From the NCBI GenBank assembly GCA_963674755.2, contig CAXXVS010000002.1, forward strand, positions 192,001 through 256,000: DNA of 64,000 bases. The letters are read 5' to 3'. The stretch comes from Desulfobacterales bacterium. Lineage in GTDB: Bacteria; Desulfobacterota; Desulfobacteria; Desulfobacterales; UBA5852. A model generated the notes under the pieces. It saw only the letters and a program-made list of their open reading frames with translations, made no database searches and was not told the DNA's origin. Shown here piece by piece: positions 29,552 to 39,839 of the stretch. Every line of letters starts with the position of its first letter. The first letter of the stretch is position 1. A program made the translations under genes and the position numbers.

Positions 29552-29754
29552 AACGGGTCGCAAGACCCGTTGCCCTTGCATTGCGGACCTGGATTGCTTA
29601 GAGAAAAACACGCCGGCCTGCCCCAGTCCCATGCGAACAAGAGGAACATGGCAGAAGGGCCAACCCTGGCAGGCGACGGCGTATGAGGGGGCCGCTTGCG
29701 GTGCCAGCGGATGCGCAACCGATTCCGGCCCCCAAACGAGAGAGAAGGATAACC

Positions 29755-31482
29755 ATGATCGTACTCGGATTATCAGGATCCCTGACCCATGACCCTTCGG
29801 CCGCGCTTTTCGTGGACGGCCGTCTTGTGGCCGCGGCGGAGGAAGAGCGCTTTCTGCGCGACAAACACGCCAAACGCCAATGGCCTTACCATTCCGCCCG
29901 CTATTGCCTCGAGGCGGCCGGCGTCGCGCCGCACGCTATCGACGCGGTGGCCTTTCCCTTTGCGCCCTTCGGTTTCACCTATCCCGGGCGCTGGCATTTT
30001 GCCCGACGCTATTGGTACGCGCCCGATCGGGCCCTGAACGCCCTGTTCAACGGCAACCGGCTTTTCCGTCGCAACCGCAAAGCCATCCTGAATCTGATGC
30101 GTCAGCTCGCCATCGATCCTGACCGGACCCCCTTCGTGCCGGTGGCCCATCATCTCACCCATGCCAGCAGTGCCTATCATCTCAGCGGGTTTGAAGGCAA
30201 AACGGCCATTTTAGGAATCGACGGCAAGGGGGAATATGCCACAACCTTTTTCGGCTATGGTGAAAAGGGCCGCATTCATTGCCTCAAGGAATTTTACGAT
30301 CCCGATTCCCTGGGGGGGGTCTACGGCGCCATGACTCAGTATCTGGGCTTCGAAATGCTGGATGGGGAATTCAAGGTCATGGGCATGGCCCCTTACGGCG
30401 ACCCGGGAAAATACGATTTGGGACGGCTGATTCAAAGCGACGGCCGATCTTTCAGTGTCGATACCCGGCTGGTCAATACCGTCGGGCTGCGGCGCTATAA
30501 GCAGGACGGTTTGGGGTTCTACTTCAGCCCCAAACTCGTGGCATGGCTCGGTCCCAAACGGGAGGGCGACGAAATCGACGATCCCTATGTGGACTACGCC
30601 GCCAGCATGCAGAAGCTGCTGGAGGACGTGTCCCTGGAACTCATCGAGACCTATCTCGGGGATATCCTGCGGGAGACCGGCCGCCTGTGTTTCGCGGGCG
30701 GGGTGGCCTTGAACGTCAAGTTGAACCAGCGCATCATCGATCTGCCGTATGTGAAGGAGCTTTTCGTTCAGCCGGCGGCCAGCGATGCCGGCACGGCGGT
30801 GGGTGCGGCTTCCTATGTCGCCCATCAGATGGGGGATGCCATCCACAAGCAGGAGCACGTCTATCTGGGTCCCGCTTTTTCCACGGACGACTGCCGCCGG
30901 GCCTGCGAAGCGCATCCGGAAAGCCCCCTCTTCGAACAGGTCGAAGACGCGCCCCGGGCGGCGGCCGGTTTGCTGGCCGATGGGCATCCCGTGGCCTGGT
31001 TTCAGGGGCGCATGGAATTCGGCCCGCGTGCTTTGGGCAACCGCAGCATCCTGGGGGATCCCAGCCGGGCGGGTATCGCCGACCGCATCAACGCCCAGAT
31101 CAAGTACCGCGAGCGCTGGCGACCCTTCTGCCCCAGCATCCTGGACCGGGCGGCTGAAGATATTCTGCAGACCCGCCACCCGGCGCCTTACATGACCTTT
31201 GCCTTCACAGTGGCTGACCATTGGAAAAAGCGCATTCCGGAAGTGGTCCATATGGACGGTACCGCCCGCGCCCAGGTGGTGACCCGGGCCACCAACCCCC
31301 GCTACTACGCCCTGATCGAAGCATTGGAGGAGCTGCGCGGCGTTCCGGTGGTGCTCAACACATCCCTCAATCGACGGGGCGAACCCATCGTATGCACCCC
31401 CACCGATGCCCTGAACATGTTCTACGGATCCGATCTGCAATTTCTCTTTCTGGAGGATCTCCTGGTACGCAAGCGACCGTGA
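29755..31482 (+). CDS. O-carbamoyltransferase (NodU/CmcH family), similar to the Pseudomonas LPS-core carbamoyltransferase
   Basis: [66 protein letters not shown]-cluster context. Confidence 0.9.
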
Positions 31483-34357: not shown

Positions 34358-35692
34358 TCAGCCGTTGCGGCAGCGGTGGCGCTGGTTGGGCGGTACCATC
34401 GGTCGCTGCCGGGCCAAAAGCGCCGCGATGGCGGCGGCTGAGCGGGCTGTGCCGCCCTGGTGATTCCGGAGATAGGCGTCGAAAGCTTCCCTTACCGCTT
34501 CCCGCGGTAGGGGCGATGCTACGATCTCGAGAAGGATTTCGGCGGCGTTGCGCCAATCTGCCGCTACCCGCACGAGACCATTGGCAAAAAGGTCCTCGCC
34601 GACCCAGTCAAACGTCTCCCATGAAGGGCCGATGACGGGAACAAGCCCGCAGGGCAATGGCTCCAGGAAATTTTGGCCGCCCAGAGGCGCAAGGCTGCCC
34701 CCCACGAAAGCGCCGCAGGCGGCGGCGTAGGCCTGGGACAATTCTCCGAAGACATCCCACAGGATGACGCTCCCCGGAGGGGCGGTAGCGGTTGTTCGGG
34801 ACCGCAGCTGGCAGGGGATGCCCCCGGATGCGAGGCGCGTCAGCCACGGCCCGATACGGTGCATATGGCGCGGGAAAAGGCCGATGATCAGCTCCGGTCG
34901 ATGAGCGCGCAGATGGCCGATCATCCGGCTGACGGCCTCTTCCTCCTCGCGGCGCACGGACCCCAGCACCACCAGGGCACTATCGGGCGGAATCAATTGT
35001 GCTACCAGATTGGCAGGGTCGCTTTGCAGACCGGCGCGCAGGCGGTCGAACTTCATATTGGGTACAACAGATACGCCCTCCGGGCTGTACAGGCCGGCAT
35101 AGCGGTTGGCATCGGCGGGGCTGACAGCCAGAATGCGCTCGGGCGCCAGGGCGCGCCAGAGATCGGGCCAGACCCGATAATGCCGCAGGCTCCTGGCACG
35201 CATGCGGCCATTCACAATGATGCAGGGAATCCGGCTGCATTTAAGGGTCTTCAACAAGCCCGGCCAGATCTCCGTTTCAAGCAGGACCACGAGGCGCGGC
35301 TGGATGGCGCCGACGGCGGCAGCCATCAGAGAAGGGCGGTCGAATGGGAAATAGGCCGACACGCAACGCGTACCCGTGGGGCCCCCAGGACGGTTGGCGA
35401 TGCCGGCCTCGATGATGTCCTTGCCCTGGCGGGTATTGGTGGTTATCAGGATACGATGGTCGCCGGTTGCCGCCAGATGGTCGAGCAGCATACACGCCAG
35501 GTAGGATTCGCCGGCGGAGGCCGCCTGAATCCAGATGTCGAAGGGTCCCTCCGGGAAAGGCTTTCCGATGCGTTGCGGCAATCCTTCCTTGAGGCGCTGA
35601 TTGCGGCTGAGGAGCGGGATGGCCGCTTGCCAGAGCCATTCATATAATACCAGGGCCGCTTTCACGGACCATGTGAAATCTACCGTTGCCAT
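34358..35692 (-). CDS. waaA: Kdo transferase
   Basis: W.QAASAGE, FPFD, ETEIWP, NGR, NMKFD, PRH, GEL...Y, FVGGSL...GGQNFLEP. Confidence 0.93.
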   Translation of the reverse strand: MATVDFTWSVKAALVLYEWLWQAAIPLLSRNQRLKEGLPQRIGKPFPEGPFDIWIQAASAGESYLACMLLDHLAATGDHRILITTNTRQGKDIIEAGIANRPGGPTGTRCVSAYFPFDRPSLMAAAVGAIQPRLVVLLETEIWPGLLKTLKCSRIPCIIVNGRMRARSLRHYRVWPDLWRALAPERILAVSPADANRYAGLYSPEGVSVVPNMKFDRLRAGLQSDPANLVAQLIPPDSALVVLGSVRREEEEAVSRMIGHLRAHRPELIIGLFPRHMHRIGPWLTRLASGGIPCQLRSRTTATAPPGSVILWDVFGELSQAYAAACGAFVGGSLAPLGGQNFLEPLPCGLVPVIGPSWETFDWVGEDLFANGLVRVAADWRNAAEILLEIVASPLPREAVREAFDAYLRNHQGGTARSAAAIAALLARQRPMVPPNQRHRCRNG

Positions 35693-35720
35693 CTTTCCGG
35701 AACCATCAGTGAAGGTGACC

Positions 35721-35869
35721 TAACAGGCCGTGGATAAACGGCGTCTAAGGCCGAAATGCGGCGTTGCCGACCTCGCGAAACGGCGCTACAACCCTGATGG
35801 TTGCTGCGCTTTTCGCATCGGCCGGGGCCTTGCCTTTCGGCCTAATTCTTGTTTATTCACGGCCTGCTA
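35721..35869. repeat. ~150-bp palindromic MITE/REP-like element
   Basis: taacaggccgtggataaac (35721-35739) matches the reverse complement of gtttattcacggcctgcta (35851-35869) at 17/19; nested pairs aggccgaaa/tttcggcct, gcgaaa/tttcgc, caacc/ggttg; TA at both ends. Confidence 0.7.
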
Positions 35870-36151
35870 AACATTATGGCATGCCGCCTGCCCCCTGGGG
35901 CGGTATTGAAACGGCGATCCTATTTTAACCGCCGTGGCCTGTCAAATTAAAAGGCCATCACGGTTGCCGGCAACCCGCTGAACCCGTGGGGTCTTTGTTG
36001 AAGGTGGAAGGGTTTTGTGCTATGCACGATTGATTTAATTGTGTAGTGATTAAAGGGGCGTCGCTCGGCATCCGGCGCCCCATGCGAGCTCCGGTTGGCA
36101 CCCCGTCGTCCACGGGACGGGATAGCGGACAACCGGCAGGAAAGGAACTTC

Positions 36152-36988
36152 ATGGCTGTGCAACATCGTGTTTCGGTTGGTCCTGTAACCTGTGGTTCAG
36201 ACACCTTGTTTTTGATTTCAGGGCCCTGTGTCATCGAAGATGAGTCTATCATGATGCAGACGGCGGAACGATTGAAAGAGCTGTCCCAGCGTCTGAAGCT
36301 GCCCCTGATCTTCAAGTCGTCCTTCATGAAGGACAACCGCAGTGCCATAGAGCATTTCCACGGCCCCGGGCTGGACAAGGGGTTGGCCCTGCTGGCGAAA
36401 ATCCGGGAGACCTTTGATGTCCCCATCATTACCGATGTGCATTTCCCCGAACAGATCGGGCCGACGGCCGCAGTGGCCGACGTGATCCAGATCCCCGCTT
36501 ATCTTTGCATGCAAACCGAGTTGGTGATTACAGCAGCCAGGACGGGGCGGGCCATCAACATCAAGCACGGGCAATTCCTGGCGCCCGCCAACATGATCAA
36601 GCCCGTCCAGAAAATCGAAAGCTTCGGGTATCATGACATCCTGCTGACGGAACGCGGCTATACCTTCGGCTACAATGACCTGGTGGTCGATCCCCGCAGC
36701 TTCTATGAGCTGCGCCAAATCGGCTATCCGGTCGTTTTCGACATCACCCACAGTATCCGCCGCTACGGAATCCCCAGCAAAGATCCCCGGGGCAGCAGCC
36801 GTGAGTATCTCACGACCATCGCCCGCGCCGGTGTGGCCGCCGGCGTCGACGGGGTTTTTATCGAAACCCACCCGAACCCGCCGGAAGCGTTGTGCGATGC
36901 GGCCAGCCAACTGGCGCTCGATCAGATGGAAGCATTCCTCATGCCGTTGATCGAGATTCACAACCTTGTCAAGGAACAACGCGACTAG
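36152..36988 (+). CDS. kdsA: KDO8P synthase family protein, metal-dependent type, with divergent active-site motifs
   Basis: GPCVIE, KSSF.KDNRS, TDVH, QIPA, ERG.TFGYN.LVVD, FD.THS, F.E.HP.P..A.CD; RBS aagga. Confidence 0.88.
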   Translation: MAVQHRVSVGPVTCGSDTLFLISGPCVIEDESIMMQTAERLKELSQRLKLPLIFKSSFMKDNRSAIEHFHGPGLDKGLALLAKIRETFDVPIITDVHFPEQIGPTAAVADVIQIPAYLCMQTELVITAARTGRAINIKHGQFLAPANMIKPVQKIESFGYHDILLTERGYTFGYNDLVVDPRSFYELRQIGYPVVFDITHSIRRYGIPSKDPRGSSREYLTTIARAGVAAGVDGVFIETHPNPPEALCDAASQLALDQMEAFLMPLIEIHNLVKEQRD

Positions 36989-37100: not shown

Positions 37101-38126
37101 ATGGATTTATATCTTGATTCGGCCGACTTCAAGGAAATTGAAGAGGCCCTCCGTTTGGGATTTATCAAAGGGCTGACCACAACCCCCACTTTCATGCACC
37201 GGCACGGGATTACCGATATCGATGGTGCCATTGTCAAGCTTTCCGGCATGGTGCCGGAGCTTCAGGTGGAAGCACTGGGGGAAACGCACGACGAAATCGT
37301 CTCCGAGGCCCATCGCCTGCTGGATTTACCTCTGGTCAAAGCGCCCGTCTTCAAGGTGCCCGTCTCCCTTGAAGGACTGCGGGCCTGCAAGACCCTGACG
37401 GACGAGGGCCACCGCGTCAATGTCCATCTGATCTATACCCTGAATCAGGCCTACATGGCGATGGCCGCCGGGGCGGCCTTTGTCTGTCCCCTGGCCGGGC
37501 GGCTGCAGGACCAGGGGCATGAAGCGATTCTGCTCTATGAGCAATGCGTCGATCTGGTGGATCGCTACGACTATCCCACCAAGATCATGTTTTCTTCGGT
37601 GCGCTATCCCGATCACGTCCGGCAGGCTGCCTTGGCCGGCGTGCATGTCTGCACCGTGCCCTGGGGCGTCATGAAGCGCCTCTGCGACAACGCCCTGACC
37701 AAGGTCGGCACCGAGCAGTTCTTCGAACACACCCGCTTGATGACGGTCAAGGTGAAAGACGTCATCCGGGCGAACAATCCCGTCTGCCGCCTGGCGGATA
37801 CGGTGAAGAATGCCCTGGTGAAGATGACGGCCTCGCGCATCGGCGCGGTGACCCTCGTCGACGATGCCGGACAATTGGCGGGTATTTTTACCGATGGTGA
37901 CATCCGCCGCCGTTTGCAGGAAGGCGGCGACGGAATCCTGGACCGCGCCATGGGGGAGGCGGGATTTACGGCCGATCCGGTTTCCATCAATGCCGAGGCC
38001 CTGCTCTATGAAGCGGTCAACGTCTTCAATGCGCGCCAGATCGATAATATCGTCGTCCTGGAAGACAATCTTCCCATCGGGATATTGGATATTCAGGACC
38101 TCGTCAAAATGGGACTTCTGGGATAA
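37101..38126 (+). CDS. Transaldolase/FSA-family domain fused to a KdsD-type CBS pair, occupying the kdsD position
   Basis: Residues ~1-212 follow the TalC/FSA pattern (LYLDSA, G.TT.P, FKVP Schiff-base Lys85, P..GR, SSVR). Residues ~213-341 are a CBS pair with GIFTDGDIRR and GILDIQDL..G as in KdsD/GutQ. Confidence 0.85.
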   Translation: MDLYLDSADFKEIEEALRLGFIKGLTTTPTFMHRHGITDIDGAIVKLSGMVPELQVEALGETHDEIVSEAHRLLDLPLVKAPVFKVPVSLEGLRACKTLTDEGHRVNVHLIYTLNQAYMAMAAGAAFVCPLAGRLQDQGHEAILLYEQCVDLVDRYDYPTKIMFSSVRYPDHVRQAALAGVHVCTVPWGVMKRLCDNALTKVGTEQFFEHTRLMTVKVKDVIRANNPVCRLADTVKNALVKMTASRIGAVTLVDDAGQLAGIFTDGDIRRRLQEGGDGILDRAMGEAGFTADPVSINAEALLYEAVNVFNARQIDNIVVLEDNLPIGILDIQDLVKMGLLG

Positions 38127-38131
38127 CCGCC

Positions 38132-38863
38132 ATGGCTACCGATGCTGCCGCAAACCCGCCCTGGTTGAAAATTTTTCAAGGTCTGGGCGGCCAGTTCGTA
38201 ACGCCTCCGCCCCAATTGCGGCAGAAGTTCGTCCGCATCCGGGCGTTGATCTTCGATTGGGACGGTGTCTTCAATACGGGCGAAAAGGGGGAGCAGCAGA
38301 CCAGCTCCTACACCGAGCCCGACTCCATGGGCACCAACATGCTGCGGTTCGGGCTGTGGCTGCCCCAGGAGGTCATGCCGGTGGTGGCGGTCATCACCGG
38401 GGTCGAAAACCGCTCGGCCATGCACCTGGCCCGCCGTGAACATTTCCAGGACGTTTATTTCAGCATCCGCAATAAGGGCCTGGCCGTGACACACCTTTGT
38501 TCGGCCCATGGCATCCGCCCCGATCAGGTGGCCTGTCTTTTCGACGATATCAACGATCTCGAGATGGCCCAGGCCTGCGGTGTGCGGTGCCTGGTAGCCC
38601 GCGGCGCCAGCCCCATGTTCACCCGCTATGTCGTCCGCCGGGGCTTGACGGACTATGTCACGGGGTGCGGGCCCCATCGCCATGGGGTGCGCGAGTTCTG
38701 CGAACTGGCGCTGGCGGCCATGGAACGCTACGATCAGGTCATTGCGGCCCGCATGTCCTGGAACGCGCAATACCAAGCCTATTTCACCCAGCGGCAGGCT
38801 ATTTTGACCAATTTTTACACTCAGAGGGCGGACCAGATCAAACCGGCCGCCAATATTGCCTGA
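38132..38863 (+). CDS. HAD phosphatase, long divergent KdsC-like
   Basis: IRALIFDWDGVF motif I, VAVITG motif II, NK, FDDINDL motif IV, G....GVREFCEL as in KdsC; kdsC position. Confidence 0.75.
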   Translation: MATDAAANPPWLKIFQGLGGQFVTPPPQLRQKFVRIRALIFDWDGVFNTGEKGEQQTSSYTEPDSMGTNMLRFGLWLPQEVMPVVAVITGVENRSAMHLARREHFQDVYFSIRNKGLAVTHLCSAHGIRPDQVACLFDDINDLEMAQACGVRCLVARGASPMFTRYVVRRGLTDYVTGCGPHRHGVREFCELALAAMERYDQVIAARMSWNAQYQAYFTQRQAILTNFYTQRADQIKPAANIA

Positions 38864-38915: not shown

Positions 38916-39839
38916 ATGCTGCTGAATAAACTGGCCGGCTGCATCGGCCGCGTGCCGCCTGCCACACTGGGCACCCTGGGACGTGGTATCGGCCGTATCG
39001 CTTATATGGTGGATATCCGGCATCGCCGCATTGTGCTGCAGAACTTGGCCTTTATCTATCCCCAATGGGATTTGCCCCGGCTCCGTCGGATAGCCCGACG
39101 CATTTTTCAGCATTTTGGCGTTGTCCTGCTCGAGATCCTTCAGGCCCCCTTCCTCGACCCCGAGGCGTTGGCGTCAAGGGTTCACGTGGAGGGGGTCGAA
39201 CAGCTCGCCGCCCTCATGGACAATCCGCGGGGCTGCCTCTTGTATTCGGCCCATCTAGGAAACTGGGAACTGGGATTTCTGGCGCTTTCCGCCCGGCTGA
39301 ATCGCCCGGTGACAACGGTGGCCAAACCCATCAAGCTGCAAATAGCCCATGCCTGGCTGACCGCCCTGCGCTCCCGCTTCGGGAACCGAGTGGTGTTCAA
39401 GGATGGCGCTCTGCCGTTTATGATCCAGGCCCTGCGCAAGGGGGAGACTGTCGGCGTGCTCATCGATCAGGGAGTCCGCCGCAAAGAAGCCGTAGAGATC
39501 TCTTTTTTCGGGAAGCACTCCCTGGCAACACCGGCCGCCGCCTTGCTGGGACTGCGCTGCCGGGTGCCGGTGGTGCCCTTGTTCTGTGTGCGGGGGGGCG
39601 ATGGGCGTTACCGGGTCAAGGTCTACCCGGCCGTAGCATTCGAACGCTCGGCCTCTTTGCACAGCGACATCACCGCCTTCACCCAAGAGCTGCTTCACAT
39701 CCTGGAGGATGTGATCAAGGCGTACCCCGAGCAATGGTTCTGGTTTCACAAGCGCTGGAAGCGAACCCACCCCGCGCTTTATCCCGAATATCGTGAACTG
39801 TTGCGCAAAAAACGCCTCAGGAAGGGGCTGCCTGAATGA
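38916..39839 (+). CDS. lpxL: Lipid A late acyltransferase (LpxL/HtrB family)
   Basis: SAHLGNWE, LIDQ, FFG, YPEQWFWFHKRWK. Confidence 0.9.
   Translation: MLLNKLAGCIGRVPPATLGTLGRGIGRIAYMVDIRHRRIVLQNLAFIYPQWDLPRLRRIARRIFQHFGVVLLEILQAPFLDPEALASRVHVEGVEQLAALMDNPRGCLLYSAHLGNWELGFLALSARLNRPVTTVAKPIKLQIAHAWLTALRSRFGNRVVFKDGALPFMIQALRKGETVGVLIDQGVRRKEAVEISFFGKHSLATPAAALLGLRCRVPVVPLFCVRGGDGRYRVKVYPAVAFERSASLHSDITAFTQELLHILEDVIKAYPEQWFWFHKRWKRTHPALYPEYRELLRKKRLRKGLPE

Follow-up and report, generated by a model that had tools for sequence, protein, structure and literature searches.

A window of 64,000 nucleotides of Desulfobacterales DNA, the whole stretch that was analysed, carries a kdsA gene whose product, judged from its sequence and those of its relatives, is a member of a real and uncharacterised KdsA subfamily, a variant and not a typical member. 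On balance, we favour the view that this protein is an A5P-using KDO8P synthase in which an Arg of loop 7 has taken the place of the cross-subunit Arg, and that its A5P comes from a route other than KdsD, predicted to be the transaldolase-CBS protein encoded beside it. In the literature searched, outside which most subscription journals lie, we found no description of a KDNRS-type KdsA or of a transaldolase-CBS gene. The gene and its motifs are placed as follows.

36152..36988, plus strand: variant kdsA, KDO8P-synthase-family gene of the KDNRS/PAYLCM/loop-7-Arg clade, 278 aa
36221-36238, plus strand: GPCVIE, motif of the metal ligand Cys26
36329..36343, plus strand: KDNRS of loop 2, Asp61 for Ala, with Lys60, Asn62, Arg63 and Ser64 kept
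36494..36511, plus strand: PAYLCM, Met120 for the cross-subunit Arg (Aquifex R106) and Tyr117 for Phe
36557..36577, plus strand: NIKHGQF, His139 for the second Lys, the first (K138) being retained
36746..36805, plus strand: rebuilt loop 7, with His200 retained, Arg203 for Gln, and the loop Ser lost
36746-36769, plus strand: THSIRRYG, the loop-7 motif
36860-36874, plus strand: IETHP motif
36893-36904, plus strand: CDAA motif

The gene starts with an ATG that has AAGGAA 5 nt upstream, and its closest relatives carry Desulfobacteraceae labels. It is the only kdsA detected by tblastn in the source genome (6.7 Mb, 97% complete), the two other matches being DAH7P synthases; neither a second canonical kdsA nor any kdsD was found in this genome. 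The protein passes both curated KdsA family models (NCBIfam PRK05198, 337 bits for a cut-off of 242; TIGR01362, 327 bits for a cut-off of 314), and its closest PDB entry by sequence is the Aquifex KDO8PS (E 2e-72). Its AlphaFold model (pLDDT 89) predicts a (beta/alpha)8 barrel with an extended loop 7, at a TM of 0.90-0.91 to solved KDO8PS, loop 7 itself having a low local pLDDT of 67-73. A DAH7P synthase identity is ruled out: the protein belongs to the same superfamily as the type I-beta enzymes and is 27-30% identical to the two copies of the genome, but it reaches only 98-112 bits, far under the DAH7P-synthase cut-offs, and has neither KPRS/T nor GARNxQ nor the short loop 7.

With the metal-dependent KDO8PS of Aquifex aeolicus (1fwn/1fww), Acinetobacter (6bng) and Burkholderia (3tmq), the protein shares 39-47% identity, the Cys/His/Glu/Asp metal set, the residues that bind PEP, and two marks of KDO8PS, the Asn insertion and the extended loop 7; most likely, it works as a metal-dependent KDO8P synthase, as predicted from these features. 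It differs from them by KDNRS for KANRS, PAYLCM for PAFLxR, KH for KK, Arg for the loop-7 Gln, a lost loop Ser, one extra residue in loop 7, and the lack of a KdsD feeding it. Three motif tests of family membership thus give a negative result, namely KANR(S/T) (K, N, R and S are nevertheless retained), PAFLxR with its cross-subunit Arg, and the Gln and Ser of loop 7 (Arg203 in 67/67 clade members), and the protein is therefore filed as a variant.

These motifs are invariant among relatives, and sequencing error, chance or gene decay is ruled out as their source. KDNRS and PAYL[C/V]MQ each occur in 211/211 relatives and His139 in 210/211, these rows having been chosen by similarity and consisting of 120 database proteins and the ORFs of loci, with some duplicates. 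In 67 de-replicated clade members, with pairwise identities down to 61%, D61, M120, H139, R203 and Y205 are invariant, and the rebuilt loop 7 has acquired Tyr205, Pro208, Ser209 and Asp211 as new invariants. The wider KdsA family has A/R/Q at positions 61/120/203 in 114 of 150 representatives, and D61, Y117, M120, H139, R203, Y205 and the loop-7 insert, near-invariant in the clade, are rare among these 114 canonical sequences. The same 67 members have kept C26, K55, K60, N62, R63, S64, D95, H97, Q113, K138, R168, H200, E238 and D249. This set includes the four metal ligands (Cys26, His200, Glu238 and Asp249), which correspond to the ligands of the metal-dependent class given in PMC3052366 and are retained, as the original prediction had it. 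It also includes the PEP-binding residues K55, K60, K138, R168, H200, D95 and H97, with roles mapped by spacing onto those described, together with the part of loop 7 in A5P binding, in PMC6650799, where K138 would correspond to the PEP-phosphate Lys133.

All five motifs listed in that prediction as altered (KDNRS, PAYLCM, NIKHGQF, THSIRRYG and CDAA) are found in the ORF, but they do not weigh equally. CDAA is not distinctive: Aquifex KDO8PS has SDAST, 9/27 canonical Bacteroidota KdsAs have SDAASQ, and an Ala follows the Asp in 37/150 representatives, which is ordinary for metal-dependent enzymes. For NIKHGQF, the His is present, but only the second Lys of NxKK is replaced. A further change, absent from the list, is the loss of the loop-7 Ser preceding GGxR, which is found at the aligned place in only 6/67 clade members.

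The phylogeny proposed at the outset recovers the KDNRS sequences as one tight clade, with an SH-aLRT of 98 in a tree of 125 rows (33 of the 150 representatives being left out as partial or chimeric) and support of 96/91 in another. The clade is present in at least seven phyla. The best 80 genome loci are distributed among Bacteroidota (33), Pseudomonadota (32) and Thermodesulfobacteriota (7), with smaller numbers in Ignavibacteriota, Gemmatimonadota, Myxococcota, Chlorobiota and Planctomycetota. Among 50,697 phage and 72,556 plasmid records, none matched at more than 60% identity, and IMG/VR scans yielded no clade member.

Ala-to-Asp and the loss of the Arg had been regarded as a concerted change. 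They are indeed fixed together, with the other substitutions, in a single clade, but outside it they are unlinked, as only 1/5 Asp61 rows lacks Arg120 (Fisher p = 0.21), and 5/150 representatives, otherwise ordinary KdsAs, have Asp61 with Arg120 kept; Ala-to-Asp as the partner of the Arg loss is thus unsupported outside the clade. Arg203 and Arg120 are mutually exclusive among the 135 scorable of the 150 representatives (9/9 Arg203 rows without Arg120, 0/123 Arg120 rows with Arg203), and this extends to the 3/3 Arg203 rows outside the clade. From these alignments, it is Gln-to-Arg203 and not Ala-to-Asp that seems to be paired with the loss of the Arg. When the Arg swap, Asp61 or the phage KdsAs L465/L466 were each constrained to a single clade, no tree was rejected by AU tests (p 0.85, 0.59 and 0.91), the free quick trees being under-searched; as the tests separate no groupings, the Arg swap may have arisen once. 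Five divergent KdsAs (P0251, P0267, P0333, P0304 and P0352) combine the loop-7 Arg with absence of the cross-subunit Arg, Asp61 or His139 being missing from some, and are possible early stages of the clade.

The Asn of KANRS, Asn62 here, presumably reads the C2/C4 hydroxyls of A5P, an assumption that we take from KANRS mutagenesis. We further take the cross-subunit Arg, the loop-7 Gln and the loop-7 Ser to be direct or near-direct A5P contacts, which would touch the phosphate end of the sugar or close loop 7 over it. In KDO8PS without the cross-subunit Arg, catalysis is harmed. Met120 aligns with Aquifex R106 (1fwn; Gly in the R106G mutant 1t8x) and Arg203 with the Gln of THSVQ, so that the Aquifex R106G and Neisseria PAFLxR/loop-7 mutants (1t8x, 1t96, 3stc, 3stg and the 4jt series) remove the same cross-subunit Arg or residues of loop 7 (R106G and the loop-7 truncation are named in structure titles). 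Those mutants are engineered single losses, whereas in the natural clade the missing Arg goes together with a new Arg in loop 7 and an Asp in loop 2. We suggest that the variant enzyme condenses PEP and A5P, giving ordinary Kdo 8-phosphate, and that its sugar-phosphate pocket has probably been rewired; in this pocket Arg203, on the subunit's own loop 7, would replace the Arg reaching in from the neighbouring subunit, and Asp61 would be a likely counter-ion helping loop closure. The changes would in this way make up for one another and would not select a new sugar. That three presumed A5P contacts are all gone is nevertheless a lot for an unchanged substrate, and it counts against this view.

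The genes around the variant kdsA that bear on its substrate are the following.

37101..38126, plus strand: transaldolase/FSA-type barrel carrying a KdsD-type CBS pair and predicted to provide the aldose phosphate
38132..38863, plus strand: HAD phosphatase distantly like KdsC (44.7 bits for a cut-off of 208), predicted to remove the 8-phosphate
34358..35692, minus strand: waaA, Kdo transferase, divergent; the only copy of the genome; its type occurs in module-free Desulfobacterales as well
38916..39839, plus strand: lipid A acyltransferase (PF03279), downstream of the module in the same direction

The partner protein is composed of a barrel (residues 1-211) with the fold of short transaldolases (TM 0.90-0.94 over the domain) and a CBS-pair tail whose best PDB match is the CBS pair of an A5P isomerase (4o9k). 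As in TalC/FSA, its barrel keeps the Schiff-base Lys and the phosphate Args, within an active site made of Asp6, Glu57, Lys85, Arg134 and Arg168, but it differs by four replacements present in 287-288/288 rows (Asn to Thr28, Thr to His109, Ser to Cys129 and Phe to Leu131) and by the CBS fusion. It lacks the TalC/FSA motifs TTNP, NVT and SPF (here TTTP, NxH and CPL), with 152 bits for a cut-off of 246, and an ordinary TalC is also present in the source genome. Like KdsD/KpsF/GutQ, it has a KdsD-type CBS pair, but its catalytic half is a transaldolase barrel and not a SIS domain, only positions 153-265 of the SIS-CBS profile (the CBS part) being matched. KdsD-type CBS pairs bind CMP-Kdo, and feedback on the partner may operate through this domain.

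E. coli FSA can form A5P out of glycolaldehyde and G3P (PMC6298115), and in the L-type pentose pathway, which is disputed, A5P accompanies octulose phosphate (PMC4470864); A5P would for these reasons be a natural ligand of the transaldolase scaffold. The neighbouring protein is thus predicted to supply A5P instead of KdsD. More speculatively, its Lys85 might form a Schiff base with an aldose phosphate, His109 and Cys129 serving to make A5P, most economically by 2-epimerisation of ribose 5-phosphate.

The link between the clade and an aldolase-CBS gene, which the original prediction had put forward for checking, is borne out. The transaldolase-CBS gene adjoins the clade kdsA in 74/80 of the best loci; in 5 of the 6 others it lies elsewhere in a genome without KdsD, and the sixth has a CBS-only match, unconfirmed as transaldolase-CBS. 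Conversely, among 80 metagenome loci of the transaldolase (close relatives only), kdsA is readable in 58 and is of KDNRS type in 58/58, the other 22 loci being cut (12) or ending ahead of kdsA (10). Among the 201 Bacteroidota genomes, the clade kdsA and the transaldolase are present in the same 3, one of which is the seed, and the coupling has no exception among the bacterial genomes surveyed. The partner gene and KdsD show almost complete mutual exclusion, KdsD being absent from 47 of the 50 carrier genomes examined out of the 80. In these 50, the clade kdsA is alone in 36, is accompanied by a second canonical copy in 13 and by a second clade copy in 1 (G048, locus L118). The pattern recurs within orders, in which carriers are not independent by kinship (10/12 gammaproteobacterial carriers group together by KdsB). 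In the gammaproteobacterial order, KdsD is present in 79/79 genomes with canonical kdsA only and absent from 11/12 carriers; in the order of the source genome, none of the carriers (5/71) has KdsD, which is found in 57/62 canonical genomes; in the order of the Scalindua carriers (3/41), all carriers are without KdsD and 3/3 non-carriers tested have it. Labilibacter marinus (L036/L119, G036) has a second CBS match of transaldolase-CBS size.

The module lies in an LPS cluster that holds lpxB, an MsbA-like ABC transporter, lptF/G, lpxK, two GT9 heptosyltransferases, Kdo/WaaP-type kinases, waaA and the lipid A acyltransferase. A NodU/CmcH-type carbamoyltransferase (window 29683-31482) is also located in this cluster, and beside the module in 7 related loci; it may be involved in core or lipid A carbamoylation. 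The roughly 460 nt between the divergent waaA and kdsA (35650-36150) contain a GC-rich, repeat-element-like hairpin region at 35720-35870, and a promoter scan gave no signal exceeding chance. The source genome has no KdsC above cut-off, and the HAD gene is present in 51/80 loci; carriers G021, G031, G035 and G043 have neither a KdsC above cut-off nor an HAD gene in the module. Elsewhere in the source genome, kdsB lies upstream of a GlmS-like, SIS-containing frame of more than 1300 aa (G000:C3:2603346-2606329), and a second GlmS-like frame of about 1500 aa is found at C3:2034457.

The main alternative is that the transaldolase-CBS protein makes another aldose phosphate, a pentose-5-phosphate stereoisomer or a longer sugar, for which KdsA has been retuned, the LPS then being built on a Kdo stereoisomer or analogue. 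We regard it as unlikely, at perhaps one chance in a handful, and still somewhat less likely its stronger form, a two-enzyme cassette spread over at least seven phyla in which a non-arabino aldose phosphate and a rewired KdsA yield a Kdo stereoisomer or analogue that anchors the LPS. The active-site changes fixed clade-wide in both enzymes speak for another sugar, as does the exceptionless bacterial coupling, which weighs against A5P. The same direction is indicated by the deletion of both kdsD and kdsC upstream of lptC in 4/4 gammaproteobacterial carriers examined. The evidence that we consider below, from phages, leftover kdsA copies, WaaA and KdsB, together with the invariance of Lys60 and Asn62 and the Arg203/Arg120 exclusion, leans against a changed sugar.

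Fourteen phage loci have a remodelled transaldolase, and the 11 of them with a kdsA all encode KANRT and the loop-7 Gln, 8 with PAFLCRQ. Three phage transaldolases fall inside the transaldolase-CBS clade of bacteria (100/100); the two of these with a kdsA have it of KANRT type, at 37-44% identity to canonical best hits versus 31-36% to the KDNRS clade. KdsAs of ordinary loop-2 type thus pair with the same transaldolase family, which argues for A5P, although these two, which lie on a long branch, have also changed at the phosphate end (Lys for Arg, Asn for the loop Ser), a point on the other side. In viral contigs L465-L478, the remodelled transaldolase, mostly without CBS, lies beside a canonical-type kdsA; a phage TTNP-subtype transaldolase is sister to the TTTP clade, and many other phage kdsA genes adjoin a SIS-only gene instead.

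A canonical kdsA has been kept without KdsD in 10/50 carrier genomes. It is intact and under purifying selection (the two closest pairs give dN/dS values near 0.07 and 0.14), and its persistence speaks for ordinary A5P use. On the other hand, Phe-to-Leu in PAFLxR affects 11/13 leftover canonical copies versus 3/119 in non-carriers, in three lineages (nine copies from one gammaproteobacterial lineage, one of three from the Scalindua order and one from Bacteroidota), a drift that fits relaxed use of A5P and thus another sugar. Leftover copies combining Phe-to-Leu, loop-7 drift and low dN/dS are those of L105-L113, L115-L117, L395, L458 and L459; redundancy, a new role or mixed tetramers are possible.

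In a tree of 101 rows, the WaaA of Bacteroidota and Desulfobacterales carriers are interleaved with those of non-carriers. Resident WaaA and KdsB are used in these two phyla, and no convergent change was found. A candidate convergent WaaA change, the loss of an Asn in one column, turned out on inspection to be lineage differences. No module-specific WaaA was found across phyla; only gammaproteobacteria and Scalindua have one, which travels with the module, is the sole WaaA in two small genomes, and can be read in favour of another sugar. In gammaproteobacterial carriers (L016, L022, L029, L030 and others; G026:C1:374838-379405), the module is bracketed by two waaA, the upstream type having a loop insertion before GGHN and being common to Scalindua-order carriers. 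Orthologues of the Kdo-8-amino enzymes KdnA and KdnB (E 7e-139 to 5k8b and 8e-98 to 5k8c) flank the module in 19/80 loci, which again argues for ordinary Kdo. In KdsB, the Gln that reads the Kdo C5-OH is kept in 39/39 carrier copies and the Tyr in 34/39, the 5 others being unread by the pattern (roles as given in PMC12199768). The same paper reports that E. coli KdsB and LPS assembly tolerate 5-epi-Kdo, which passes KdsB slowly and enters LPS, so that resident KdsB and WaaA cannot exclude an epimer; the 5-epimer could however be derived from ribose 5-phosphate, with no need for a supplier gene.

The suggestion that the substitutions shift aldose specificity is thus unsupported so far by the sequences, Asp61 being uncoupled from the Arg loss and tolerated in a genome that encodes KdsD. 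The latter is G386, with two KdsD copies, in which a KDNRT/PAFLCRQ/THSVQ kdsA precedes kdsC in an operon of the kdsA-kdsC-lptC type. It provides the KDNRS-like variant beside an ordinary KdsD that was to speak against such a shift, but not the common occurrence that had been specified. In the order of the source genome, another kdsA, of KDCRS/PAYLCRQ type, lies in a polysaccharide locus (L385:2473-8520; G390:C2) with a flippase, a lone CBS-pair gene, an HpcH-type aldolase, two short-chain dehydrogenases and a CMP-sugar transferase, KdsD being elsewhere in the genome. Asp61 and Tyr117 occur here a second time next to an aldolase, with the CBS pair as a separate gene, and another ulosonic acid may be made.

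Two further explanations appear improbable to us, to a similar degree. In the first, KdsA and the transaldolase-CBS protein would bind each other and pass an open-chain aldose phosphate directly, through a putative interface made of the fixed surface changes His139, Asn147, Lys150, Pro151, Pro265, His270 and loop 7. Such a complex would account for the strict co-occurrence even when the genes are apart (5/5 genomes checked), for several clade-specific invariants outside known active-site motifs, and for the correlation between the pairwise identities of the two proteins (Spearman 0.62, 67 gene pairs), but co-inheritance alone yields the same correlation, and in phages the members of this transaldolase clade are found with KdsAs of KANRT type. 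In the second, the substitutions would be meaningless founder changes in a kdsA of ordinary kinetics riding on a transaldolase-CBS cassette, for which a single origin suffices, given one clade and an Asp61 tolerated elsewhere, but the new residues are invariant across members just 61-70% identical, and must therefore be under selection, and loss of the cross-subunit Arg is harmful to catalysis.

KANRS, PAFLxR and the loop-7 Gln and Ser are regarded as fixed features of KDO8P synthases, and KdsD as the route to their substrate. A natural clade without these features, which provides the only kdsA in 36/50 carriers tested, is a ready-made test of how aldose phosphates are selected. Some carriers are in culture (Thermonema rossianum, Saccharicrinis aurantiacus, Labilibacter marinus and Plebeiibacterium sediminum), and the sugar question is therefore directly testable. 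An A5P-using enzyme of this kind would point to an undescribed A5P supply, which bears on metabolic reconstruction, as carriers look KdsD-deficient, and on inhibitors directed against KdsA or KdsD. If the product were not Kdo, a near-universal core sugar of the outer membrane in bacteria, the clade would break with the sugar that is most conserved in LPS.
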